Positions 1 to 9,616 of a DNA stretch of 9,616 nucleotides are shown here, in pieces; positions within the stretch are counted from its first letter, which is position 1; each line of letters starts with the position of its first letter. The DNA comes from a virus (lineage: Duplodnaviria; Heunggongvirae; Uroviricota; Caudoviricetes). The position numbers and the translations under genes are program-made. Under the pieces are notes generated by a model that searched no databases, was not told where the DNA came from, and saw only the letters and a program-made list of their open reading frames with translations. The DNA lies in IMG/VR virus record IMGVR_UViG_2778261570_000015. One strand, 5' to 3'.

Positions 1-294
<294 letters not shown>

Positions 295-600
295 CCGTCC
301 AGAAGAAGATATTTTCACTGGCTGGTATGTCGCCAAAATCCAGCAATATGACAGCAAAGTCTGGCATTAATACAGCAGATACAAGCAAAGTTTATCATTT
401 TCTGGTGGTAGGAGCGGATGCCTTAACTATGTCAGAAATTACGGTCGATGGTGTTAGCGTTGAGAAGGTCGGCGGCTGCGCCAGAGAATTTCTGGTCGTA
501 GATGGCTTTCTCTGCTCGCGTAGTGACTCCACAAAAACCTTCGTCCACACGCGCGACGTTAACGAAATGAGCGCGATGTATTGTGCATCTGGTGCTTCCA

Positions 601-628
601 ATAGTGAGTTTTCGGAGTCCATAAAAAA
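601..628 (+). repeat. Direct repeat copy 1 (AGTTTT-NN-GAGTCCATAAAAAA); partner at 6481-6504
   Basis: 14-nt exact match GAGTCCATAAAAAA at 615-628 and 6491-6504, extended to 20/22 identity by AGTTTT at 607-612 and 6483-6488. Confidence 0.6.
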
Positions 629-725
629 GAGCTTGCCGTTATGCGGCAACACGGTTTATGGTTATAAGGCACCTCATAAAACGGGTGCCGGGTTTCGCAG
701 CCCGGAAATGTACGAGGCGACACAT

Positions 726-747
726 GACGCGCCGAGCGTCTTTTTTT
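726..747 (+). terminator. Weak intrinsic terminator candidate (5-bp GC-rich stem, 5-nt loop, T7 tract)
   Basis: GACGC (726-730) pairs with GCGTC (736-740), followed by TTTTTTT (741-747). Short stem, so marginal. Confidence 0.35.
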
Positions 748-754
748 GTGCCGT

Positions 755-800
755 TAGCCAGACTCACACTTTTTTCAGTGATGCGGTTATAATCCGCGTC
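755..800 (+). promoter_or_regulatory. Sigma70-type promoter candidate for the primase operon; -10 TATAAT at 788-793 flanked by a GCGG/CCGC inverted repeat
   Basis: Perfect TATAAT hexamer at 788-793; the -35 region is poor (CACACT-like). GCGG (783-786) and CCGC (794-797) embrace the -10, an operator-like arrangement. First SD-bearing start codon downstream is at 950. Confidence 0.35.
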
Positions 801-949
801 GCTTGCAAAATTATGGTGGGCTGGACAGGGCAGCCGAAAGGCTGGCCGGTTTCCTTGTACGCCGGTACTGCGAACTCTGTTCAGTCCACCACCAGCGAGT
901 TTCGCAGCTCCGGTGGTGGGAAGAATTCCCAGTACAAGGAGGCTGCCAC

Positions 950-1144
950 ATGCTGGCTACTACCCCTACCCAAAAACCGCAATTTATCTGGATTATCGCC
1001 GCAGTTCGCCGCGATTGCCCGACAATTACCGCCAAAATTCATCATATTGCTGCCGAGTCTGAACGCGATGCTCGCCGTTCTCTGGTGCGCGATCACATCT
1101 GCTTTTTTGCTGGTCGTATCCGCATGGAGGTGGCACATGATTAA
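950..1144 (+). CDS. Hypothetical small protein, 64 aa (first gene of primase operon)
   Basis: ATG 950 preceded by AAGGAGG (936-942, spacing 7). Codons in this frame are enterobacterial-preferred (CGC/CGT, CTG, ACC, ATC); the alternative long frame here has CTA/TTA/AGG/ATA and about 6% Trp. Stop overlaps the next start. Confidence 0.55.
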   Translation: MLATTPTQKPQFIWIIAAVRRDCPTITAKIHHIAAESERDARRSLVRDHICFFAGRIRMEVAHD

Positions 1145-1355
1145 AACCTACGATGTGCATATGGATCCCCTCGAACGCACAAGCCAGATCATCACACTGA
1201 CAGAAGTGATTAACGACATTCTGGTGAGCAACTCTCCCTCACGAGACGAAAGACTGAAGGCGTTACTCGCGATATTGGATCTCGCCGTTCGTGACGTTCA
1301 TTTCCTGCTGGAAGGTGGACAAATGCCATGCAAAACGGGGGCAACCAATGAATAA
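1137..1355 (+). CDS. Hypothetical small protein, 72 aa
   Basis: ATG 1137 preceded by GGAGG (1126-1130); overlaps the previous stop (ATGATTAA). Same frame as the 288-1355 track ORF, of which it is probably the only real part. Confidence 0.55.
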   Translation: MIKTYDVHMDPLERTSQIITLTEVINDILVSNSPSRDERLKALLAILDLAVRDVHFLLEGGQMPCKTGATNE

Positions 1356-1542
1356 CTCAATTAATACCCCTCGCCTTACGTCCGCACTTCAATTAATCGA
1401 GCAAGCAGCGGCTGTCCTGGTTGCTGTCAGTCTTTCGGCTGAAGAAATGGACGCTGCTGATGTCGTGGATGCGATTAAAGCGTGCTCATCTTTGGTTAAC
1501 GATGCCCGTGCCGAGCTGGTAATTCTTGGGGGTGAAAAATGA
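1348..1542 (+). CDS. Hypothetical small protein, 64 aa (MNNSINTPRL...)
   Basis: ATG 1348 overlaps the previous stop at 1353-1355; GGGGG at 1336-1340 serves as SD. The track ORF 1291-1542 starts from an earlier in-frame ATG without an SD. Confidence 0.5.
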   Translation: MNNSINTPRLTSALQLIEQAAAVLVAVSLSAEEMDAADVVDAIKACSSLVNDARAELVILGGEK

Positions 1543-1802
1543 ATATCAACTTAATTTATCGTCATCCGTGTGAGCTGGAAATTGAATCATTGCTGGGGCG
1601 CGAAGAGCCATATCCAGACACATTCACTCCCGCAGATTGCGCGACTGAACGGCTTACCAGAGCGCGCACAGGTCTGGTTCATGTGATGAATGAGATTGTT
1701 CCCTCGGTGGGAGGGGAACAGGCGACAGTAATCAATAGCTGGCTACAAAAAGTTACCTCCCTGATAGATATCGGTTTAATCGATGTGGAGAGTGCGAAAT
1801 GA
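1539..1802 (+). CDS. Hypothetical small protein, 87 aa
   Basis: ATG 1539 overlaps the previous stop (ATGA); GGGGGTG upstream. Track ORF. Confidence 0.6.
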   Translation: MNINLIYRHPCELEIESLLGREEPYPDTFTPADCATERLTRARTGLVHVMNEIVPSVGGEQATVINSWLQKVTSLIDIGLIDVESAK

Positions 1803-2020
1803 CCAACATCCAGCTCATTGAAGCGCAATGTCGCATCGAACAGGTTCAGACTGTTTTAGGGTTCTGGCTTGAAGGGGCCAGCCCCAGCAACAGAGACAAG
1901 TTAATGATTGGCGCGGTTATGTCACTGCTCAATGGCGTACCAGAAGCTATTCAGGAAGCGGACGAATTGTTGGGCAAATATGAGTTACAGAATCATTCAG
2001 GCGAGGCGAAACATGAATAA
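1799..2020 (+). CDS. Hypothetical small protein, 73 aa
   Basis: ATG 1799 overlaps the previous stop (ATGA); GGAGAG upstream. Track ORF. Confidence 0.6.
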   Translation: MTNIQLIEAQCRIEQVQTVLGFWLEGASPSNRDKLMIGAVMSLLNGVPEAIQEADELLGKYELQNHSGEAKHE

Positions 2021-2615
2021 TTTCTTAACTTTCCATGCAGAAGCAACGCCTGACGGCGTAAACATCATGTACCGCAGCAACGATGGCATGACAGAACGCG
2101 TTGAGACCGTCTCATATATTGATGCCGTAAATCGTCTGGATGCCGGGGATTATGACGATAAACCAGATGAAGGCATGTTTATACATCTCGCTATTGCCAG
2201 TGGCGGCAACCAGGGATATTTCGATTACACATCACAGCATCACGTGATTATGTGGCGCTGGCTGATAGCAACAGCATTCATGCTGGAAATGAGAGAGGAA
2301 AACGGCACTGTCAGCATCATTGATGATACTGGCAATCCTTCCGAAGTGGCTGTTTATTCCAACGACATCGTCGCCATGCCGCTGTATCCAGTAGCAGAGC
2401 GCCTCGCTATGGCAAACAACATTGAGGGCGCGATGATAGAACGTTTTGGCATCGAGTCTGGCACAGAACGCGCCATCATTTTCTACAGAGCCATGATGGA
2501 TGTGGAACAAGGAGCACTGACTCCATTTGGTCGTGAAACGCTTGCTGAACTTCACAACAGCTTTATAGCTGAACTGAATGAAAACGGCATGCCAGCGGAA
2601 CCAGTGACGCACTGA
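2013..2615 (+). CDS. Hypothetical protein, 200 aa (MNNFLTFHAE...)
   Basis: ATG 2013 overlaps the previous stop at 2018-2020 with GAGG upstream. The track ORF 1908-2615 begins at an earlier ATG inside the preceding gene; the coupled start at 2013 is more plausible. Confidence 0.6.
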   Translation: MNNFLTFHAEATPDGVNIMYRSNDGMTERVETVSYIDAVNRLDAGDYDDKPDEGMFIHLAIASGGNQGYFDYTSQHHVIMWRWLIATAFMLEMREENGTVSIIDDTGNPSEVAVYSNDIVAMPLYPVAERLAMANNIEGAMIERFGIESGTERAIIFYRAMMDVEQGALTPFGRETLAELHNSFIAELNENGMPAEPVTH

Positions 2616-2625
2616 GGATGGAGCC

Positions 2626-2967
2626 ATGATTACTAAAAATTTCCGACTGAATGCGCTGGCAAATAAGTATGCGTCAGCACTGTATAACCACATTACCTCC
2701 ACCAGCGGCGGGGACTATTTCATGATTGATGCGGACGGAGAGGCCGTCCGTGTGGAAATCGTCAATGGAGTAAAAGGCGTTCGCAGCCTGATCGATAGTT
2801 ACGCACTGGCAGCCATGAAAGTGTTCTACCCGCAGTGGGAAACCGTGGGGATCGAGCTTCTTGATCGTTGCGTCACTAAGGACAGATTGACTGACGTCGG
2901 GCGTGAGATATGGCAAAGCATGGTTAATGACATGGGCGCAACTGTAGCGGGAGGTTCTCATGCGTGA
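2626..2967 (+). CDS. Hypothetical protein, 113 aa
   Basis: ATG 2626 with GAGGATGGAG upstream; 10-nt gap after the previous stop. Track ORF. Confidence 0.65.
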   Translation: MITKNFRLNALANKYASALYNHITSTSGGDYFMIDADGEAVRVEIVNGVKGVRSLIDSYALAAMKVFYPQWETVGIELLDRCVTKDRLTDVGREIWQSMVNDMGATVAGGSHA

Positions 2968-3331
2968 AAATGTAGAAATGGCGCTTAGCTCCGCAATCGG
3001 AGAGCAGGTGGCAAAGATTGCTGGTGCTGTGTGGATTCATAACCTTCATTCTACTGGTGAAGAGAAAATGGCAATTCAGACGCCAGAGGGACGCACCATT
3101 ACTACATCTCTGAAGCCGTCAGATGTTTGTGATCTGATTTGCGCATTCATGTACCCAGCAATGAGGACTGTCCACGGCGATAAGTGGAAACTTGCGACAA
3201 CCGCTGAATTTGATATGTGGCTAAACAATGATGGCATGCTGACTGATTACGGAATAACCAAGTGGCAGATGCTAGTTAGCCATATCGCAAACGCTATAGA
3301 CCACGTGGGGTACGGTGATGCGAAACATTGA
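2960..3331 (+). CDS. Hypothetical protein, 123 aa
   Basis: ATG 2960 overlaps the previous stop; GGGAGG upstream. Track ORF. Its 3' end overlaps the primase start by 14 nt. Confidence 0.65.
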   Translation: MRENVEMALSSAIGEQVAKIAGAVWIHNLHSTGEEKMAIQTPEGRTITTSLKPSDVCDLICAFMYPAMRTVHGDKWKLATTAEFDMWLNNDGMLTDYGITKWQMLVSHIANAIDHVGYGDAKH

Positions 3332-6074
3332 TCTTATCCGTCAGGTTATCAGTGCGTCTGAAAACAACTGGCCTCATGTGCTGGGCTGCCTGAACATAAA
3401 TGTCCCTGACTCTCCGCGCCGTCATGCTCCCTGCCCTGCATGTGGGGGCAAAGATCGATTCCGGTTCGATGACAACGGGCGCGGTAGCTTCATCTGTAAT
3501 CAGTGCGGCGCTGGTGATGGGCTGGATTTAATTAAACGCGTAAATAACTGCGACACAACAGAGGCGGCGCTTCTTGCCGCTGATGTTCTGGGTATTGATT
3601 ACCGGACAACGGAAACACCAGAAGCCACCAGCCAGAAACGGGAACAACTGGAAACCGAGCGCCAGCGACGCGAACAGGAGCGCCTGAAAAGGGCAGAGAA
3701 GGACGAACAACAAAGACGGGATACGTTTTCCCGTCAGTTTGATGACATGCGCAGAAAGGCTGTAAACGGCAAATCTGATTATCTGGTTGCGAAAGGGGTA
3801 GGTGATTTTACATTCCCCGTGTTGCCCGATGGATCTCTGTTGCTGGCGCTGGTGGATAAATCCGGCGCAGTAACAGCAGCACAGACTATTACCTCACATG
3901 GTGAAAAAAGACTCCTGACAGGTTCAGCAAAGCGAGGGGCATATCACGCCATAAACGCACCAGAAACAACACAGAGCATCTTAATCGCAGAAGGGCTGGC
4001 AACGGCATTATCTGCCCATTTAATGCGTCCAGAGGCGCTGACAGTGGCGGCGATTGATGCCGGGAACCTGTTATATGTCGCCCAGGTACTGCGGGATAAA
4101 TTTCCTTCAGCACAAATCATCATTGCTGCGGATAACGACCACAGCGAAGGAAGACAAAACACGGGGAGAATAGCAGCAGAAAAAGCAGCTTTATCTGTTT
4201 CTGGATGGGTGGCATTACCCCCGACAGATCACAAAGCAGACTGGAATGATTACCACCAAAAACACGGTATTAAATGCGCCACAGAAGCGTTCAATAAGTC
4301 AATGTACCAACCACAGGGTAATGGCGTGAAACAGGAGCCACAGACCATTGAGGGAAGCGATTTTAAGGTTATGGATACCGATCCACTGAAACCAAGAATA
4401 GAAAGCCGCGAGGATGGTATTTATTGGGTATCTCCGAGAGCTGACAGCCAGAGTGGAGAAATCATCAATAACGAAAGCTGGTTATGTTCTCCGTTAAGCG
4501 TTATCGGTACTGGCAGAGACGATAAAGACCAGTATCTCATTCTTCGCTGGCTGTCGTTTGGTTCTGAAACGCCGACAACCGCTGCCATTCCACTGGCTGA
4601 TATTGGTGAACGTGAAGGATGGCGCACACTTAAAGCTGGTGGGGTAAATGTCACGACCAAAAGCAGCCTCAGAGCAATACTGGCAGACTGGCTACAACGC
4701 AGTGGCTCTCGTGAATTGTGGCGTGTTGCTCATGCCACTGGCTGGCAATGCGGAGCGTACATCATGCCTGATGGGGAAATCATCGGAACACCTGAAAATC
4801 CTGTGCTGTTCAGCGGGAGAAGCTCAGCCGCAGCCGGATATACCGTCTCAGGGAGCGCGAAAAGCTGGCGTGATAACGTGGCGCGTCTGGCCTTTGGTAA
4901 CTATTCAATGATGACCGGGATCGGCGCAGCACTGGCAGCGCCATTGATTGGGCTGGTGGGCGCTGACGGGTTCGGCATTCATTTCTATGAGCAGTCGAGC
5001 GCAGGTAAGACCACCACGGCAAACGTGGCGAGCAGCTTATACGGCAACCCTGATTTACTGCGGCTGACGTGGTACGGAACCGCGCTGGGGCTGGCAAATG
5101 AGGCCGCCGCCCACAATGACGGACTAATGCCGCTTGATGAAGTTGGTCAGGGCGCTGATCCTGTCAGCGTTTCACAGTCTGCCTATGCGTTATTTAACGG
5201 TGTAGGGAAACTGCAAGGCGCTAAAGATGGTGGAAACCGGGATCTAAAACGCTGGCGTACAGTGGCAATCAGCACCGGAGAAATGGATTTAGAAACATTT
5301 ATCGCTACTTCCGGGCGAAAAACCAAAGCCGGGCAACTGGTGCGACTGCTGAATATTCCGTTGAGTAAAGCAGTACGCTTTCACGATTACCAGAACGGAA
5401 AACAGCACGCAGACGCACTGAAAGACGCTTACCAGCATCACCACGGCGCGTCCGGGCGTGAGTGGATTAAATGGCTGGCAGACCACCAGCAACAGGCTAT
5501 TAAAACCGTTCGTGACTGCGAAAGCAGATGGAGAAGCCTGATCCCATCCGATTATGGTGAGCAGGTTCACCGTGTAGCCGCGCGATTTGCCATTCTGGAG
5601 GCCGCATTGTTGTTAGGCGAGGTTGTAACAGGCTGGGATGCTCAGACATGCCGTGATGCGATACAGCACAGCTATAACGCATGGTTGCGCGAGTTCGGCA
5701 CAGGTAACAAAGAGCATCAGCAGATTATTGAACAAACGGAGGCATTTCTTAATGCCTATGGGCTTAGCCGTTTTGCACCATTTCCATACAGCCCGGCAGA
5801 TTTGCCCATCAAAGATTTAGCCGGATACCGTCAGCGTGGAGAACATGACGAAAGCCCAATGATTTTCTACACATTCCCGGCCACATTTGAAAAGGAGATC
5901 GCATGTGGTTTCAACGCAAAACAGTTTGCTGAAGTGTTGAAAAAAGCCGGGATGCTAACCCCACCAAACAGCGGTCGTGGATACCAAAGAAAATCACCAC
6001 GTATTCAGGGACGACAAATAAACGTTTATGTACTCAATTACCAGCCAGGAGATTATAACTCATCTGAAGAATGA
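3318..6074 (+). CDS. DNA primase-helicase (replication initiator), about 918 aa: N-terminal zinc ribbon, TOPRIM primase core, P-loop NTPase domain (phage P4 alpha-like / DUF927-like architecture)
   Basis: Zinc ribbon CPACGGKDRFRFDD...CNQCG (about 3420-3524). TOPRIM signatures IAEG and AADNDHSEGR (about 3972-4244). Walker A-like SSAGKTT and Walker B-like LMPLDEVGQ (about 4980-5150). Start ATG 3318 (GGGG at 3307-3310); the track's GTG 3315 is too close to the SD. Confidence 0.9.
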   Translation: MRNIDLIRQVISASENNWPHVLGCLNINVPDSPRRHAPCPACGGKDRFRFDDNGRGSFICNQCGAGDGLDLIKRVNNCDTTEAALLAADVLGIDYRTTETPEATSQKREQLETERQRREQERLKRAEKDEQQRRDTFSRQFDDMRRKAVNGKSDYLVAKGVGDFTFPVLPDGSLLLALVDKSGAVTAAQTITSHGEKRLLTGSAKRGAYHAINAPETTQSILIAEGLATALSAHLMRPEALTVAAIDAGNLLYVAQVLRDKFPSAQIIIAADNDHSEGRQNTGRIAAEKAALSVSGWVALPPTDHKADWNDYHQKHGIKCATEAFNKSMYQPQGNGVKQEPQTIEGSDFKVMDTDPLKPRIESREDGIYWVSPRADSQSGEIINNESWLCSPLSVIGTGRDDKDQYLILRWLSFGSETPTTAAIPLADIGEREGWRTLKAGGVNVTTKSSLRAILADWLQRSGSRELWRVAHATGWQCGAYIMPDGEIIGTPENPVLFSGRSSAAAGYTVSGSAKSWRDNVARLAFGNYSMMTGIGAALAAPLIGLVGADGFGIHFYEQSSAGKTTTANVASSLYGNPDLLRLTWYGTALGLANEAAAHNDGLMPLDEVGQGADPVSVSQSAYALFNGVGKLQGAKDGGNRDLKRWRTVAISTGEMDLETFIATSGRKTKAGQLVRLLNIPLSKAVRFHDYQNGKQHADALKDAYQHHHGASGREWIKWLADHQQQAIKTVRDCESRWRSLIPSDYGEQVHRVAARFAILEAALLLGEVVTGWDAQTCRDAIQHSYNAWLREFGTGNKEHQQIIEQTEAFLNAYGLSRFAPFPYSPADLPIKDLAGYRQRGEHDESPMIFYTFPATFEKEIACGFNAKQFAEVLKKAGMLTPPNSGRGYQRKSPRIQGRQINVYVLNYQPGDYNSSEE

Positions 6075-6097
6075 GCTTCTTCATGTGCGTAGAAAAG

Positions 6098-6126
6098 GTG
6101 TTGGTTCAGTTGGTTCAGTTGGTTCA
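6098..6126 (+). repeat. Three tandem direct iterons GTTGGTTCA (first copy extended to GTGTTGGTTCA)
   Basis: Copies at 6098-6108, 6109-6117 and 6118-6126, read directly from the sequence. Confidence 0.7.
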
Positions 6127-6168
6127 ATTTGTAAAGAGTATTGTTTTATAAGGATTTTATTCTTTTTA

Positions 6169-6212
6169 TTGAACCAACACTGAACCAACAACACGGTATT
6201 TTGAACCAACAC
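6169..6212 (+). repeat. Three inverted-orientation iterons TGAACCAAC(AC), reverse complement of the upstream iterons
   Basis: Copies at 6169-6180, 6180-6191 and 6201-6212; centre spacing about 11 and 20-21 bp, roughly one and two helical turns. Confidence 0.7.
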
Positions 6213-6260
6213 AATGTGACTGAATTGATGCGCACAACACCTGGCTGGCATCAGAGAGTG

Positions 6261-6281
6261 TTTTACGAGACTTTCGTAAAA
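6261..6281 (+). promoter_or_regulatory. Palindromic operator-like site O1: TTTTACGA-N5-TCGTAAAA (core TACGA-N5-TCGTA)
   Basis: 8-bp perfect inverted arms at 6261-6268 and 6274-6281. Confidence 0.45.
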
Positions 6282-6318
6282 TCCTGTGTACAAGGGCGTG
6301 ACGTTTTTGAAAGTGAGC

Positions 6319-6337
6319 ACTACGAAATTTTCGTAGT
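6319..6337 (+). promoter_or_regulatory. Palindromic operator-like site O2: ACTACGAAA-T-TTTCGTAGT (core TACGA-N5-TCGTA)
   Basis: 9-bp perfect inverted arms at 6319-6327 and 6329-6337; same core and spacing as O1, 57 bp downstream. Confidence 0.45.
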
Positions 6338-6480
6338 TCAGAAAACAGCCTCTGAGAAGTTGTTATGCCTGTTCAGCAAACCATCCGCATAGCTGATCGC
6401 GAATCAAATTACCAATGGAGCCAGAAGCAAGGGCAGAACTGAAAAGCGCCTGCCGTGAAGAGTAATGCGACACCATAAAT

Positions 6481-6504
6481 ATAGTTTTTAGAGTCCATAA
6501 AAAA
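6481..6504 (+). repeat. Direct repeat copy 2 (AGTTTT-NN-GAGTCCATAAAAAA)
   Basis: See copy 1; lies 27 bp upstream of the 6531-6564 terminator. Confidence 0.6.
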
Positions 6505-6530
6505 CCTGTCAAAACCTGACACACAGAACG

Positions 6531-6564
6531 ATGCCACCAGCTACTGAGCGGTGGCATTTTTTTG
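6531..6564 (+). terminator. Rho-independent terminator, + strand
   Basis: ATGCCACC (6531-6538) pairs with GGTGGCAT (6550-6557), 11-nt loop, then TTTTTTT (6558-6564). No T-tract on the opposite strand, so unidirectional. Confidence 0.65.
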
Positions 6565-6584
6565 TGCTATTTGTTTCATATTTT

Positions 6585-6632
6585 GCAATTACGATGATGA
6601 ATATTGCGATTTGTGAAACTATAATAACTGTT
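6585..6632 (+). promoter_or_regulatory. Promoter candidate for the downstream operon; -10 TATAAT at 6620-6625
   Basis: Perfect TATAAT 34 bp upstream of the SD of the 6659 ORF; weak -35 (ATGAAT, 17-bp spacer); AT-rich upstream region. Confidence 0.4.
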
Positions 6633-6658
6633 GTTTTATACAGTTCTAAGGGGGCGTT

Positions 6659-6820
6659 ATGGCTATTTCAGTAAAGCCGGTATTGATAAGTGAGAAGCAA
6701 ATGGAAGCGATAAAGAAAATTCAGGAAGAGCAGCGTAAAAAATCAGGAATTGGAGTAGCGCCAACTCTGCATGAAATTGCACGAGGGTTAATAGATAAGG
6801 CGCTGGCAGGCTGTATGTGA
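6659..6820 (+). CDS. Small 53-aa protein, possible ribbon-helix-helix (CopG/Arc/MetJ-like) DNA-binding regulator; absent from the ORF track
   Basis: ATG 6659 preceded by AAGGGGG (6648-6654); stop TGA 6818-6820. Translation MAISVKPVLISEKQMEAIKKIQEEQRKKSGIGVAPTLHEIARGLIDKALAGCM has a short N-terminal beta-strand-like segment followed by two predicted helices. Next gene starts 16 nt downstream. Confidence 0.5.
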   Translation: MAISVKPVLISEKQMEAIKKIQEEQRKKSGIGVAPTLHEIARGLIDKALAGCM

Positions 6821-6836
6821 AAATGGATGGCATCGC

Positions 6837-7298
6837 ATGGAACTAAAATTTATTGATAACCCTGTGCGATTACAGGCCTTTCTTAACGAGCCAGGCAATA
6901 CCGAAAATATTGTTGAGCCGGGGCACACGTACTACATCAAGCCTGATGCGGTATATCTCGGCATCTACGAAGGATTAGTGCTGGCTGGCGTTCATGAAGT
7001 GCGTAACTTCTGGCATAGCGTTGTTGAATGCCATGCGGTGTACGACCCCGGATTCCGTGGTGAATATGCACTGCAAGGACATCGATTATTCTGCAAATGG
7101 CTTCTCGAAAACTCACCATTCCTTAACAGCATCACTATGGTTCCTGACACCACGAAATACGGACGGGCAATTATCCGTTTGCTTGGCGCTACCCGTGTTG
7201 GTCACCTTGATGATGCTTATATCAGATGTGGTAAACCCGTCGGCGTAACGCTTTATCAGTTAACTCGGCAACAATATAAGGAATTCAGCGAATGTTAA
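6837..7298 (+). CDS. Hypothetical protein, 153 aa
   Basis: Track ORF; ATG 6837 with GGATGG upstream; stop overlaps the next start. No family recognised. Confidence 0.7.
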   Translation: MELKFIDNPVRLQAFLNEPGNTENIVEPGHTYYIKPDAVYLGIYEGLVLAGVHEVRNFWHSVVECHAVYDPGFRGEYALQGHRLFCKWLLENSPFLNSITMVPDTTKYGRAIIRLLGATRVGHLDDAYIRCGKPVGVTLYQLTRQQYKEFSEC

Positions 7299-7969
7299 TT
7301 ACCCATATAGCTCATAAACATCTCAATCGTGCCGTATACGAAAAAGGCGGTGATGGTGGTGCCTCTAAAGCTCAGGCGAAGGCCCAGCAGCAGGCAATTG
7401 ATTTGCAGCGCGAGCAGTGGAATACGGTGATGAATAATCTCAAGCCGTATGCAGAAGTCGGATTGCCTGCTTTACAACAACTACAAGGACTGATGACTCT
7501 GGAAGGGCAGAATAAAGCCGCGAATGATTTCTTTGGTTCTGGTTTATATAAAACACAGGCAGATCAGGCCCGTTATCAGAACCTTGTCTCAGCAGAAGCT
7601 ACCGGGGGGCTTGGCTCAACAGCTACCAGTAACCAGTTATCTTCCATTGCGCCCATGCTTTATAACAATTGGCTTAGTGGGCAAATGCAAAATTATGGAA
7701 ACCTGCTAAATGTCGGGATGAATGCGGCATCAGGGCAGGCAACGGCAGGGCAAAACTACGCCAATAATACCGGACAACTCTTGCAGGGGCTTGGCGCTAT
7801 TCGTGCAGGTCAGGCGCAGCAGCCATCCAGTCTTGCGCGTGGTATTGGTGGGGCAGCATCAGGCGCTTTAGCGGGTGCGCAACTTGGTTCCGTTGTTCCT
7901 GGAATAGGAACTGCGGCCGGCGCTATTGGTGGTGGGCTTATTGGTCTTGTTGGGGGGCTTGGATTCTAA
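7292..7969 (+). CDS. Ala/Gln/Gly-rich protein, 225 aa, with a glycine-zipper hydrophobic C-terminus; putative internal-virion/ejection-type protein
   Basis: Track ORF; start overlaps the previous stop; AAGGAA upstream. Low-complexity AQ-rich N-terminal part; C-terminus GIGTAAGAIGGGLIGLVGGLGF. Composition resembles podovirus internal core proteins; not verified by homology. Confidence 0.65.
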   Translation: MLITHIAHKHLNRAVYEKGGDGGASKAQAKAQQQAIDLQREQWNTVMNNLKPYAEVGLPALQQLQGLMTLEGQNKAANDFFGSGLYKTQADQARYQNLVSAEATGGLGSTATSNQLSSIAPMLYNNWLSGQMQNYGNLLNVGMNAASGQATAGQNYANNTGQLLQGLGAIRAGQAQQPSSLARGIGGAASGALAGAQLGSVVPGIGTAAGAIGGGLIGLVGGLGF

Positions 7970-9288
7970 TGGCGACATGGCAACTTGGCGGGCTGCCTAG
8001 CATGGCACCGCAAAATGATAATGCTCCTCGTTCTTCCGTTCCTCAGCCTGTGCAGTATCAGCAGCAGCCAAACGTAGGTTTAATGGCGCTACAGGGGCTA
8101 AGAGGCGTTGCTGAGATTAATCAGCAGGCGCAAATTTCCCAGCAGCTAAAAGAATATCAGGCACGGTTGGGTAGTGCGGTAGCTAATAATGATCGTGTTG
8201 GCGTGCAGAAGTTAATGGCCCAGTATCCCCAGTTTATGGCTGATTCTCAAAAACAGATGGGATTCATTGATGCTGAGCAAAATCGGCAGACCGCTGACGC
8301 TGCCATGAATCTGCGTCTTGCGTCACAAACTGGAGATCCACTGACCATGCAGAAGGCCATTCAGCAGGCAAATCCAGTATTACAGCGATTTGGTCTTCCT
8401 GCTGAAGAGGTTTATCAGTCTTGGCAGAATGACCCACAGGAATTCAACAGAATCACTGACCTCATCCACCTCCATGCTGATCCAAATAGTTACTTTAGTG
8501 TTCAAGAGAAGCAGCAAGGGCAGAGTATTGCACAGCAGAACGCAGATACATCTGCATATAATGCTCAGGTTAATGCGGAGCAGGGTAATCGGCGGCTCGA
8601 TATGGAGCAGTTCAAAGTCCTATCCGATAACCAACTACGCACGAGAGAAATGGTTCTGAAAGCACGACTTGGACGTGCTCAAAATGACATCGAGAGAGAC
8701 AAGCTCAATGCTGAACTGAGCAAGGTACAGCAGGCGAAAGTGGAGAAGATGAACGATAAAATTAATACTGTTGCAGGTAATATCGACTCCTTGAACTCTG
8801 CGCTTGAAGTGGGTCATGAACTGGCGGGAATTGTAGGGAAACATCCTTCGGCCGTTACCCGTTCGCAGAACTATAACCCCCTGACGCTGGGGTTTGGATT
8901 CCTCCCTGATGTAGCAGAAGACACACGAAGCCTACGCGCCAAAGCTGATGAATACAACCTAAAGGTTATTCTGCCTAGCCTAAAAGGTACTTTTGGCTCT
9001 AACCCAACCGAAGGGGAAAGGGCTGCCCTTATGCAATCTCAAAATGGCATTAAGTCAGCAACCAGCAATGAGGCATTTTTGCGAGAGTTGAATAAAGCGC
9101 AGGACGTAATTATTCGAATGCAGAAACGACAGATTGCCGGGCTCGGTATTCCTGTAACCAAATCTAAGGACGAAGAAACTGATACCAAAATGCTGTTGCA
9201 GGATCCTTCACTGGTTAAGGATTATGTGACCGCACATGGCTATCTGCCGGAAAGTTACTATCAGGCAAAACTTAAGGGATGGCAATGA
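7969..9288 (+). CDS. Gln/Ala-rich protein, 439 aa; putative internal-virion/ejection-type protein
   Basis: Track ORF; TAATG overlap with the previous gene and TGA overlap with the next. Q/A-rich, coiled-coil-like composition. Confidence 0.7.
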   Translation: MATWQLGGLPSMAPQNDNAPRSSVPQPVQYQQQPNVGLMALQGLRGVAEINQQAQISQQLKEYQARLGSAVANNDRVGVQKLMAQYPQFMADSQKQMGFIDAEQNRQTADAAMNLRLASQTGDPLTMQKAIQQANPVLQRFGLPAEEVYQSWQNDPQEFNRITDLIHLHADPNSYFSVQEKQQGQSIAQQNADTSAYNAQVNAEQGNRRLDMEQFKVLSDNQLRTREMVLKARLGRAQNDIERDKLNAELSKVQQAKVEKMNDKINTVAGNIDSLNSALEVGHELAGIVGKHPSAVTRSQNYNPLTLGFGFLPDVAEDTRSLRAKADEYNLKVILPSLKGTFGSNPTEGERAALMQSQNGIKSATSNEAFLRELNKAQDVIIRMQKRQIAGLGIPVTKSKDEETDTKMLLQDPSLVKDYVTAHGYLPESYYQAKLKGWQ

Positions 9289-9616
9289 TGGCACAACTGA
9301 CAGAAAAACAGAAAGCCTATTCCCGTCATCTCGATGAAAAATATGGTTTCCCATCAGGGACGATGGAAACATTAGTTGGCAATGAATCTAGTGGTAACGG
9401 AAGTGCCGAGTCACCGAAAGGAGCTAGAGGATTTGCTCAACTGATGCCCTCAGTAATGAGTGATGCTGGTTATCGTGGAACAGATCCGCGCTCACTGCCA
9501 TTTGAAAAGCAAATGGATATCGCAGCAAACCATCTCAATAAAGGAATGAAGCGATTTGGTGTGAACCGCCCCGGGTTTCCTGGAGAGTGTTTTATCTGTG
9601 AACTCAGGCTGCCAGA
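9285..9616 (+). CDS. Lytic transglycosylase (SLT) domain protein, N-terminal fragment; gene continues beyond the window
   Basis: ATG 9285 with AAGGGATGG upstream, overlapping the previous stop. Translation contains GNESSGNGSAESPKGARGFAQLMP, matching the SLT catalytic signature (ES...A.S..GA.G..Q), at the same N-terminal position as in T7 gp16-type internal virion protein D. Open to the end of the window. Confidence 0.7.
   Translation, partial: MMAQLTEKQKAYSRHLDEKYGFPSGTMETLVGNESSGNGSAESPKGARGFAQLMPSVMSDAGYRGTDPRSLPFEKQMDIAANHLNKGMKRFGVNRPGFPGECFICELRLP

Follow-up and report, generated by a model that had tools for sequence, protein, structure and literature searches.

Why should DNA that carries a primase gene and a candidate replication origin go on, immediately downstream, to encode the kind of proteins that a tailed phage ejects into the envelope of its host? 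The question is raised by the window analyzed here, i.e., the whole 9,616-nucleotide stretch from the caudoviral IMG/VR record IMGVR_UViG_2778261570_000015, in which positions 6659-9616 form one tightly coupled operon of five open reading frames (ORFs). Our results support the view that the window belongs to an EcCIMP1-like phage-inducible chromosomal island (PICI), a satellite of P22-like (Lederbergvirus) podophages. Since EcCIMP1 was published in 2025, this family of elements is already known as a kind. Two things are newly described here: the full P22-type ejection set as a conserved and selected feature of satellites across genera; and the exchange of its gp20/gp16 pair between identical backbones, sometimes linked to sieA and with pac-like sites alongside. 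As for the role of the cassette, we put at roughly 60% the probability that the satellite ejection proteins (E-proteins) load into helper-built capsids and inject satellite DNA, with the gp20/gp16 pair aiding escape from exclusion.

A P22-type ejection cassette

The operon has the following parts:

6659-6820, plus strand: 53-residue protein, first gene of the operon, identical to WP_001018524.1 of EcCIMP1 and other islands
6837-7298, plus strand: P22 gp14 homolog of 153 residues (DUF2824, 'head morphogenesis'; PF11039, phrog_651)
7292-7969, plus strand: P22 gp7 homolog of 225 residues (PF25688, phrog_598)
7969-9288, plus strand: P22 gp20 homolog of 439 residues (PF16928, phrog_917/2534)
9285-9561, plus strand: 5' 92 codons of an SLT::gp16 fusion (906 residues in the intact gene); identity to intact copies stops at 9561
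9562-9616, no strand assigned: IS3-family terminal inverted repeat inside SLT::gp16, with TGAACCGCCCCGGG... in place of gp16 sequence

All five ORFs lie where an earlier note on this DNA, made from the letters alone, had placed them, the last starting at 9285 and leaving the window. A 16-nt gap at the first junction and overlaps of 7, 1 and 4 nt at the others point to one operon, and the order 14-7-20-16 on one strand is that of P22 (P22 32386-36788). The compositional features on which the note had built its guess of ejection proteins are all present: the 225-residue protein contains 16% G, 15% A and 11% Q and ends in a glycine zipper; the 439-residue protein is rich in Gln and Ala (12% Q, 10% A); and the SLT motif is recovered as PF01464 (E 1e-12, residues 15-117 of the full-length ortholog). 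Profile searches carry the resemblance beyond composition and confirm that the cassette encodes genuine homologs of the P22 ejection proteins. The P22 half of the guess (gp7, gp20 and gp16) is borne out by these matches; the T7 half (gp14, gp15 and gp16) does not go beyond analogy and homology of the SLT domain.

Taking the proteins in order, the 153-residue product matches PF11039 (DUF2824; E 1.5e-61) and phrog_651, 'head morphogenesis' (E 1e-66). P22 gp14 is a non-virion late protein. The satellite version is 84% identical in amino acids to Kapi1_055, from the P22-like phage vB_EcoP_Kapi1, and 23% identical to P22 gp14; its region has 81% DNA identity to Kapi1 across 596 bp, and its ratio of non-synonymous to synonymous substitution rates (dN/dS) is 0.07. 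The 225-residue protein matches PF25688 (P22_gp7; E 6.6e-73) as well as phrog_598, with 58% identity to Kapi1 gp7, 56% to P22 gp7 and a dN/dS of 0.07-0.08. The 439-residue protein matches PF16928 (Inj_translocase; E 3.7e-22, residues 34-196) and phrog_917/2534, with a dN/dS of 0.065. Among 50,697 phage records nothing exceeds ~28% identity to it, and satellite copies of other genera reach 70-89%; judged by these comparisons, it is a divergent allele found mostly in satellites.

The intact ortholog of the last gene, of 906 residues, lies at 29231-31951 of the E. coli CV839-06 locus (L001). Downstream of the SLT domain it matches phrog_770, the gp16-type DNA transfer protein, at residues 187-862 (E 1.8e-120), and PF26808 (Phage_P22_gp16) is precomputed on the gp16 orthologs of three other loci (L007, L013 and L015). 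Its SLT region also matches phrog_342, 'internal virion protein with endolysin domain' (E 3e-16), and has a dN/dS of 0.07-0.08. Across 97% of its length the protein aligns with the gp16 of phages Dewey and Huey at 47% identity; SLT::gp16 fusions occur also in true P22-like phages and prophages, namely Dewey, Huey and a Klebsiella electrica prophage (L013, 11335-14049). Identity to Kapi1 declines along the operon, from 84% for gp14 through 58% for gp7 and 26% for gp20 to 24% for gp16.

In the window the last gene is cut by an IS3-family insertion sequence from 9562, not merely by the edge of the window. Identity to intact islands ends at 9561, the IS3-type repeat follows, and SLT::gp16 is broken after codon 92. 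An IS3-family transposase occupies the same position in E. coli M15 (L016), where the gene is split into 22505-22861 and 25922-27976.

The island and its context

Window positions 55-9561 are 99% identical to a segment found in ~226 E. coli chromosomes, and hundreds of E. coli genomes contain EcCIMP1-like islands that share 97.5-100% of their sequence with the window DNA; the primase gene is covered to at least 80% in 361 E. coli genomes, nearly always at 99% identity or more. The backbone at 55-8129 is likewise 97.5% identical to an island (L017) with the same integrase as EcCIMP1. The latter, a PICI of E. coli MP1, has 19,963 bp (GenBank OR778291; Pick, Stadel & Raivio 2025, ISME J, PMC11773190).

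In E. coli CV839-06 the island spans ~19.5 kb, from yicC to dinD. It begins with an integrase, a hypothetical protein, an AlpA-type helix-turn-helix (HTH) protein, another hypothetical protein, an AntA/AntB antirepressor, DUF4222, Ash and six small genes; there follow the Zn-ribbon/Toprim/DUF927 primase, the 53-residue protein, gp14, gp7, gp20 and SLT::gp16, and finally a 232-residue lipoprotein, a second AlpA-like HTH protein and PerC. The Pfam families found in the island are accordingly Phage_integrase, Phage_AlpA, Toprim/DUF927, Ash and PerC, with the window itself holding Ash, the primase and the cassette. Intact copies of ~19.5-20 kb (L001, L017 and L002, the MP1 locus) contain no detectable virion structural or lysis gene beyond the cassette. 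The earlier note had seen no portal, capsid or terminase gene upstream, and none was found in the window or in the intact copies; the latter have an integrase gene and no tail gene, and no capsid or tail gene lies directly downstream of their cassette.

This context bears on two possibilities that the earlier note had entertained, a complete podovirus with an unusual gene order and a different envelope-acting system, which could be of the conjugative, type IV secretion system (T4SS) or tape-measure type. That the SLT domain occurs also in VirB1-type proteins of T4SSs is the sole point for the T4SS version. Chromosomal genes, however, stand on both sides of the ~19.5-20 kb island, in which no portal, coat, terminase, tail or T4SS gene was found, and gp14, gp7, gp20 and gp16 each match a P22 ejection family (E 1e-22 to 1e-120), and neither Pfam nor PHROG gave a match to a T4SS or tape-measure family. 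Genomic context and profile searches together refute the podovirus, T4SS and tape-measure readings, which we find hardly credible. The note's further option, a satellite-like element, is the one that the data favor: the intact islands lack capsid and tail genes, and EcCIMP1 is a helper-dependent satellite.

The boundaries differ between members of the family, being yicC/dinD in L001 and tRNA-Thr in EcCIMP1, and so do the integrases. A search for direct att repeats in L001 yielded a weak 12-bp repeat only, and it was the comparison with unoccupied sites that placed the left boundary at the end of yicC. Window positions 1-54 do not match L001 19947-20000: where the antirepressor gene ends there is a mosaic junction, and the upstream module of the window's island is therefore a different one. 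Between slmA and pyrE, a few kb off the island, L001 has a gene of the reverse transcriptase family (12413-13372) that is unrelated to the present finding.

From the primase up to the operon the window contains the following features:

3315-6074, plus strand: satellite primase/helicase with Zn-ribbon, Toprim and DUF927 (PF08273, PF13362, PF06048; phrog_1139, E 2e-178)
6100-6212, no strand assigned: iteron cluster and candidate replication origin, with three direct and three inverted GTTGGTTCA repeats
6540-6565, plus strand: terminator-like hairpin (6540-6555) with T-run, ~100 nt upstream of the operon

The iterons follow the primase directly, with the direct repeats at 6100-6132 and the inverted copies at 6169-6212; their position and repeat structure make this cluster a plausible replication origin. 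No sigma-70-like promoter was found at 5900-6900, against 2.1 expected from shuffles, and this absence, together with the hairpin at 6540, suggests that expression of the operon needs an activator or antitermination.

Recurrence, selection and allele exchange

The cassette is not peculiar to E. coli. We define the satellite layout as integrase, AlpA, Ant/Bro, DUF4222, Ash, primase, 53-residue gene and cassette, with no capsid genes. About 20 loci, from several genera and IMG/VR, share it without portal, coat or terminase matches. The identity of their gp20 to that of the window, and that of two complete prophages, is as follows:

Leclercia (L005): 89%, satellite layout
Logan run assemblies (L007/L008): 84%, satellite layout
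Three IMG/VR loci: 81-83%, satellite layout
Pectobacterium (L015): 73%, satellite layout
Serratia (L009/L010): 70%, satellite layout
ENA metagenome assembly (L014): 49%, satellite layout
Klebsiella electrica (L013): 45%, complete P22-like prophage, gp16 with SLT domain
Providencia (L011): 38%, complete P22-like prophage

Virion markers of Kapi1 and P22, searched by tblastn, are found in none of the satellite loci, nor are homologs of gp4, gp10 and gp26; the same markers, along with the precomputed Pfam families, are all present in the two true prophages. Satellites with the cassette are thus present in Escherichia, Leclercia, Serratia and Pectobacterium at the least.

It is also under strong purifying selection there: in the E. 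coli, Leclercia and L007 satellites all cassette genes are intact, with dN/dS of 0.03-0.08 at dS of at least 1. These values bear directly on the notion that the cassette is an inert remnant of a decayed P22-like late operon fused to a P4/PICI-like island. One might cite for it the IS-disrupted copy of the window itself, the 81% DNA identity of the gp14 region to Kapi1, which points to recombination with phages, and the relic of a small-terminase gene elsewhere in the island (see below). Against it stand the intact ORFs in the same layout in Escherichia, Leclercia, Serratia, Pectobacterium and others, the low dN/dS at saturating dS, and the constant placement and orientation behind a conserved 53-residue gene, with alleles being replaced rather than lost. 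Since the genes are intact and so constrained, a decaying remnant is excluded; it is largely refuted by the dN/dS values together with conservation across genera, and an inert remnant of whatever kind appears highly improbable.

Two loci delimit what is constant. L007 (5854-9265) lacks gp14 and has SSB, a HipA_2-domain gene and others between the primase and the operon, and the minimal cassette of L014 (9822-14178) consists only of the 53-residue gene, gp20 and SLT::gp16; the constant core is therefore the 53-residue protein with the gp20/gp16 pair. The 53-residue gene heads the cassette in every satellite examined, including L014, and its dN/dS is 0.03-0.05. Its product has no detectable relatives outside these elements. 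The earlier note had called it ribbon-helix-helix (RHH)-like, a label that found no backing: there is no Pfam match at E<=1, no PHROG match and, in a profile search, no PDB sequence match at E<=10; hhalign against the Arc/Mnt profile gives 1% probability; and Foldseek against the PDB returns nothing below E 4.9. A single-sequence AlphaFold2 model (pLDDT 78) predicts an extended N-terminus and two helices, a topology that would be compatible with an RHH monomer, though not specific to it. Possibly the protein is a small regulator.

The gp20/gp16 pair is what varies between otherwise like islands. Of the 361 E. coli genomes that share the primase, 71 share the gp20/gp16 allele of the window; other E. 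coli islands are 97.5-100% identical up to a switch point, either inside gp7 or at about codon 54 of gp20 (~window 8129), beyond which they have another pair. There are at least two more allele sets. One, in L017, has a gp20 that is 52% identical to P22 gp20 and a 670-residue gp16 without an SLT domain; the other, in L006 and L021-L027, has a gp20 that is 38% identical to P22 gp20. Throughout, gp20 and gp16 occur together and are exchanged jointly between backbones that are nearly identical. The L017 gene that follows gp16 (15758-16372, minus strand) encodes a membrane protein homologous to P22 SieA (30% over 108 residues, E 2e-6). In window-type islands this slot is occupied by the 232-residue lipoprotein (L001 32102-32800), which has an LLAGC lipobox and no family match, and which is also present in L007 and L020.

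Contigs of ~22 kb with gp20 homologs were considered as possible excised circles, and the one examined, L007, ends in chromosomal genes; it is therefore not evidence of packaged DNA.

pac-like sites and packaging

How might such an island be packaged? One further feature of the window points to an answer:

436-542, minus strand: remnant of a small-terminase gene of P22 type (87% identity to P22 gene 3) that starts at the pac site

Read from 542 to 436, this relic aligns with nt 268-374 of P22 gene 3, starting exactly at the pac site; its reading frame for the small terminase subunit (TerS) is broken. Positions 541-522 form a pac-like 20-mer. For the pac core the published sequence is AAGATTTATCTG, and for functional pseudo-pac sites the pattern is AA[GC][AG][TC][AT][AT][ATC][TC][TC]T[GT][ACG][ACG][ACG]TC (PMC11226127). 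The window's AAGGTTTTTGTGGAGTC matches 16 of the 17 positions of that pattern. In its strict form the pattern occurs in P22 at pac; the Leclercia and L007 satellites have two matches each, a short way downstream of the cassette, and one of those in L007 reproduces the P22 17-mer exactly, as part of 53 nt that are a close copy of P22 sequence. A relaxed form, which has no match in 300 shuffles of 19.7 kb, occurs downstream of the cassette on the operon strand, once each in L001, EcCIMP1 and L017 and four times in L005; in the ash regions of both the window and EcCIMP1 it is found in inverted orientation. The sites stand at L001 32977, L002 6455 and 18955, L017 16520, L005 14862-15371 and L007 15144-15172. 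Neither Kapi1 nor the Serratia-type satellites (L009, L014) contain a match to the relaxed pattern.

About 690 E. coli genomes contain the terS fragment; its satellite copies, in the ash region, are 85-100% identical, and those in the small-terminase genes of prophages 83-88%. The latter are the best terS matches found among E. coli prophages, and the search identified no cognate helper. From these data it is a reasonable inference that the satellites are packaged by pac mimicry, via helpers with a P22-type TerS. The TerS of Kapi1 is unrelated in sequence to that of P22 (E = 7), and Kapi1 may therefore be a poor helper, with very low transfer of EcCIMP1.

The relic overlaps an annotated gene. 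The 355-residue 'Ash family protein' (window 288-1355) has its Ash domain only at residues 124-232, and the N-terminal third of the ORF overlaps the opposite-strand terS fragment and forms a patch of divergence (87%, against 96-100% in its flanks, in comparison with L006). A frame test on the terS-derived stretch of the ORF gave an omega of ~0.45-0.5 in several frames, from 32 differences only.

Proposed role of the cassette

Two bodies of published work frame the question of function. The first concerns EcCIMP1, whose excision and circularization require the presence and induction of Kapi1 as well as the island's own integrase and alpA; Kapi1, which has no generalized transduction, transduces it at a very low rate. 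EcCIMP1 adds superinfection immunity against Kapi1, and neither the induction nor the lytic yield of Kapi1 is lowered. Its alpA_1 can replace the Kapi1 excisionase, an 'insurance' role, and a Kapi1-like prophage is present in 2 of 21 EcCIMP1 strains. The authors took the genes after the primase for 'DNA transfer'/DUF2824-like packaging candidates, and the word 'ejection' does not appear (all PMC11773190). A transcriptome study of MP1 reports nothing on the individual cassette genes.

The second concerns P22, which ejects gp7, gp20 and gp16 to form a ~50-nm trans-envelope channel templated by the tail hub gp10, with gp7 as the outer-membrane and extracellular part, gp20 as the periplasmic tube and gp16 at the cytoplasmic membrane (bioRxiv 10.64898/2026.09.03.749273). 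The E-proteins enter procapsids by scaffold-dependent binding of their N-terminal parts (PMC8402733). P22 in which distant homologs from Sf6, L, CUS-3 or HK620 stand in for all three E-genes incorporates the foreign proteins and gives a normal infectious yield; gp7 can be exchanged on its own, but gp20 and gp16 have to match each other in order to function. SieA, an inner-membrane protein made by prophages, acts through these two proteins to block injection; escape mutations lie in their C-terminal regions, and the HK620 set escapes in part (PMC10883804). The satellite pattern, with its paired gp20/gp16, a more conserved gp7 and a gp14 nearest to that of the helper, fits these genetics closely.

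Hence, for the loading of satellite E-proteins into helper capsids, we propose the following course. Upon induction of the helper, AlpA would activate the island, which would excise and replicate from its own primase and origin, as shown for EcCIMP1. The cassette would then be expressed, and its products would enter helper procapsids by the scaffold-dependent route of phage E-proteins. The helper terminase would package satellite concatemers by headful: two ~20 kb satellite copies come close to the length of the Kapi1 genome (39.4 kb), and it is this equivalence, with the pac-like sites of many members, that leads us to propose headful packaging. On a new cell, gp7, gp20 and gp16 might form a trans-envelope channel from the tail hub of the helper, with the SLT domain cutting peptidoglycan, as the P22 structures would suggest. 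The benefit would be that an exchangeable gp20/gp16 pair of its own lets the satellite enter cells, including helper lysogens, that are closed to the E-proteins of the helper. Such escape from SieA-type exclusion or envelope incompatibility is the least certain part of the proposal.

Several points weigh against this proposal. Because E-proteins are loaded before DNA, helper and satellite particles would share one mixture of proteins, and mismatched gp20 and gp16 are non-functional in P22 (PMC10883804), so that co-expression could harm both partners; for these reasons a role in interference or immunity stays the main rival. Kapi1 titres are not reduced by EcCIMP1 and transduction is very low (PMC11773190), such that the benefit is not evident with Kapi1. 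P22 is sensitive to its own SieA, and a sieA gene beside gp16 is therefore by itself no sign of escape. As to the packaging step, pac-like sites are absent from the Serratia-type satellites and the TerS of Kapi1 is unrelated to that of P22. Finally, the window's own copy of the cassette may be non-functional, since its gp16 is disrupted by the insertion sequence.

The main rival holds that the cassette is a weapon or an immunity device, which either places mismatched, defective channels in helper virions or lets the carrier cell block incoming P22-like phages. Interference with helpers is common among satellites. The non-infectious P22 particles that result from mismatched gp20/gp16 pairs (PMC10883804) would be the precedent for the former; for the latter one can point to the superinfection immunity that EcCIMP1 adds against Kapi1 and to the lipoprotein (window-type islands) or SieA homolog (L017) immediately after gp16, both of which are candidates for the source of that immunity. 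Yet this phenotype could stem entirely from the neighboring lipoprotein or other genes; EcCIMP1 lowers neither the induction nor the lytic yield of Kapi1 (PMC11773190); a helper-like gp14 and a conserved procapsid-binding N-terminal region of gp20 fit productive assembly; and the SLT domain, needless in a poison subunit, is under purifying selection. On balance we consider this role unlikely.

The 'insurance' role of alpA_1 in EcCIMP1 (PMC11773190) has a possible analog in the cassette, which might supply E-proteins to helpers whose own are defective, ill-matched or absent and thereby widen the helper range. The scarcity of Kapi1-like prophages among EcCIMP1 strains suggests diverse helpers, and E-protein sets do function across P22-like phages (PMC10883804). 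Nevertheless, a helper without E-proteins and with all its other late genes intact should be rare, and complementation leaves unexplained why the gp20/gp16 pair specifically is swapped between identical backbones. We regard it as quite improbable.

A more general version of the entry function, possible if rather doubtful, is that these islands form a family of Enterobacterales satellites with an exchangeable entry module. In it a matched gp20/gp16 pair, often accompanied by gp7, gp14 and a transglycosylase, would be loaded into stolen P22-like capsids and take satellite DNA past SieA-type blocks and envelope barriers at which particles of the helper itself are stopped; the pac copies would stand in for a satellite terminase.

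Implications

Known satellites alter the size of the capsid, the specificity of packaging or the expression of helper genes, and some make capsids of their own; to our knowledge, none brings its own DNA-injection machinery. Were the entry-module reading true, it would define a new class of satellite function, one that controls how DNA enters the cell and not capsid size or packaging. If the proposed loading of helper capsids is true, host entry and escape from superinfection exclusion would be a further axis of conflict and cooperation between satellites and helpers, one that would affect the range of cells reached by islands that carry PerC-type virulence regulators, Abi and other accessory genes. 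The swaps fall precisely at gp20/gp16, the pair targeted by the SieA exclusion of P22, and the pac-like sites may offer a concrete explanation for why Kapi1 transfers EcCIMP1 at a very low rate, hitherto unexplained. With EcCIMP1 and Kapi1 a system for genetic work already exists, and the genetics and structures of the P22 E-proteins are mature, which makes the role of the cassette directly testable.

Comparison with known systems

Our literature search found no other paper on satellite-encoded ejection proteins; the comparison is hence with systems that share parts of the design. The gp14/gp15/gp16 set of T7 offers an analogy in that three ejected proteins form a trans-envelope channel and the largest has an N-terminal lytic transglycosylase domain; profile searches gave no match to T7-type gp14 or gp15 families, and gp7 and gp20 match P22-type families only. 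With P4-like satellites the islands share a tyrosine integrase, an Ash-family protein, a large Zn-ribbon/Toprim primase-helicase and a genome that is a simple fraction of the helper length. The helpers differ, those of P4 being P2-like myophages and those here P22-like podophages, and no homologs of Psu, Delta or Sid were found among the island genes that were annotated or scanned with Pfam and PHROG, a set that covers the small ORFs in part.

P22 itself has homologous 14-7-20-16 proteins in the same order and with the same tight coupling; the mosaicism of alleles is concentrated in gp20 and gp16, as it is in P22-like phages (PMC10883804), and the L017 satellite has its sieA homolog right after gene 16, as does P22. 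In the phage, however, the cassette comes behind the portal gene, the coat gene and the tail genes 4, 10 and 26, whereas here it follows the primase, the iterons and the 53-residue gene; and gp16 of P22 and Sf6 lacks the N-terminal SLT domain of the window-type protein. Lederbergvirus prophages differ further in having terminase, portal, scaffold, coat, tail hub/needle and tailspike genes, which were not found in the satellite loci.

With EcCIMP1 both the backbone and the cassette are shared. The window proteins are 100% (53-residue protein), 98% (gp14), 98.7% (gp7) and 99.5% (gp20) identical to their EcCIMP1 counterparts, and beyond the intact sequence of the window the corresponding values for the intact L001 copy are 99.8% for SLT::gp16 and 99.6% for the lipoprotein. 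The order AlpA, antirepressor, DUF4222, Ash, primase, cassette, AlpA-like and PerC is shared. The differences lie in the integration site (yicC-dinD in L001, as against tRNA-Thr) with its different integrase; in a pseudogene and an Icd-like gene of EcCIMP1 where the window has an intact long 'Ash' ORF; and in the splitting of the window's gp16 gene by the IS3-family element.

Finally, the Gram-negative PICIs of the EcCICFT073 and EcCIEDL933 type and the Staphylococcus aureus pathogenicity islands (SaPIs) resemble these islands in their integrase, AlpA master regulator and primase/replication module, in a PerC-type accessory gene, in a helper-dependent life cycle and in a size of 10-20 kb. What follows the primase sets the two groups apart: in the former, genes for capsid-size redirection, for a small terminase or for packaging specificity; here, ejection proteins. 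The EcCIMP1-like family appears to use pac-like sites in cis in place of a TerS of its own.

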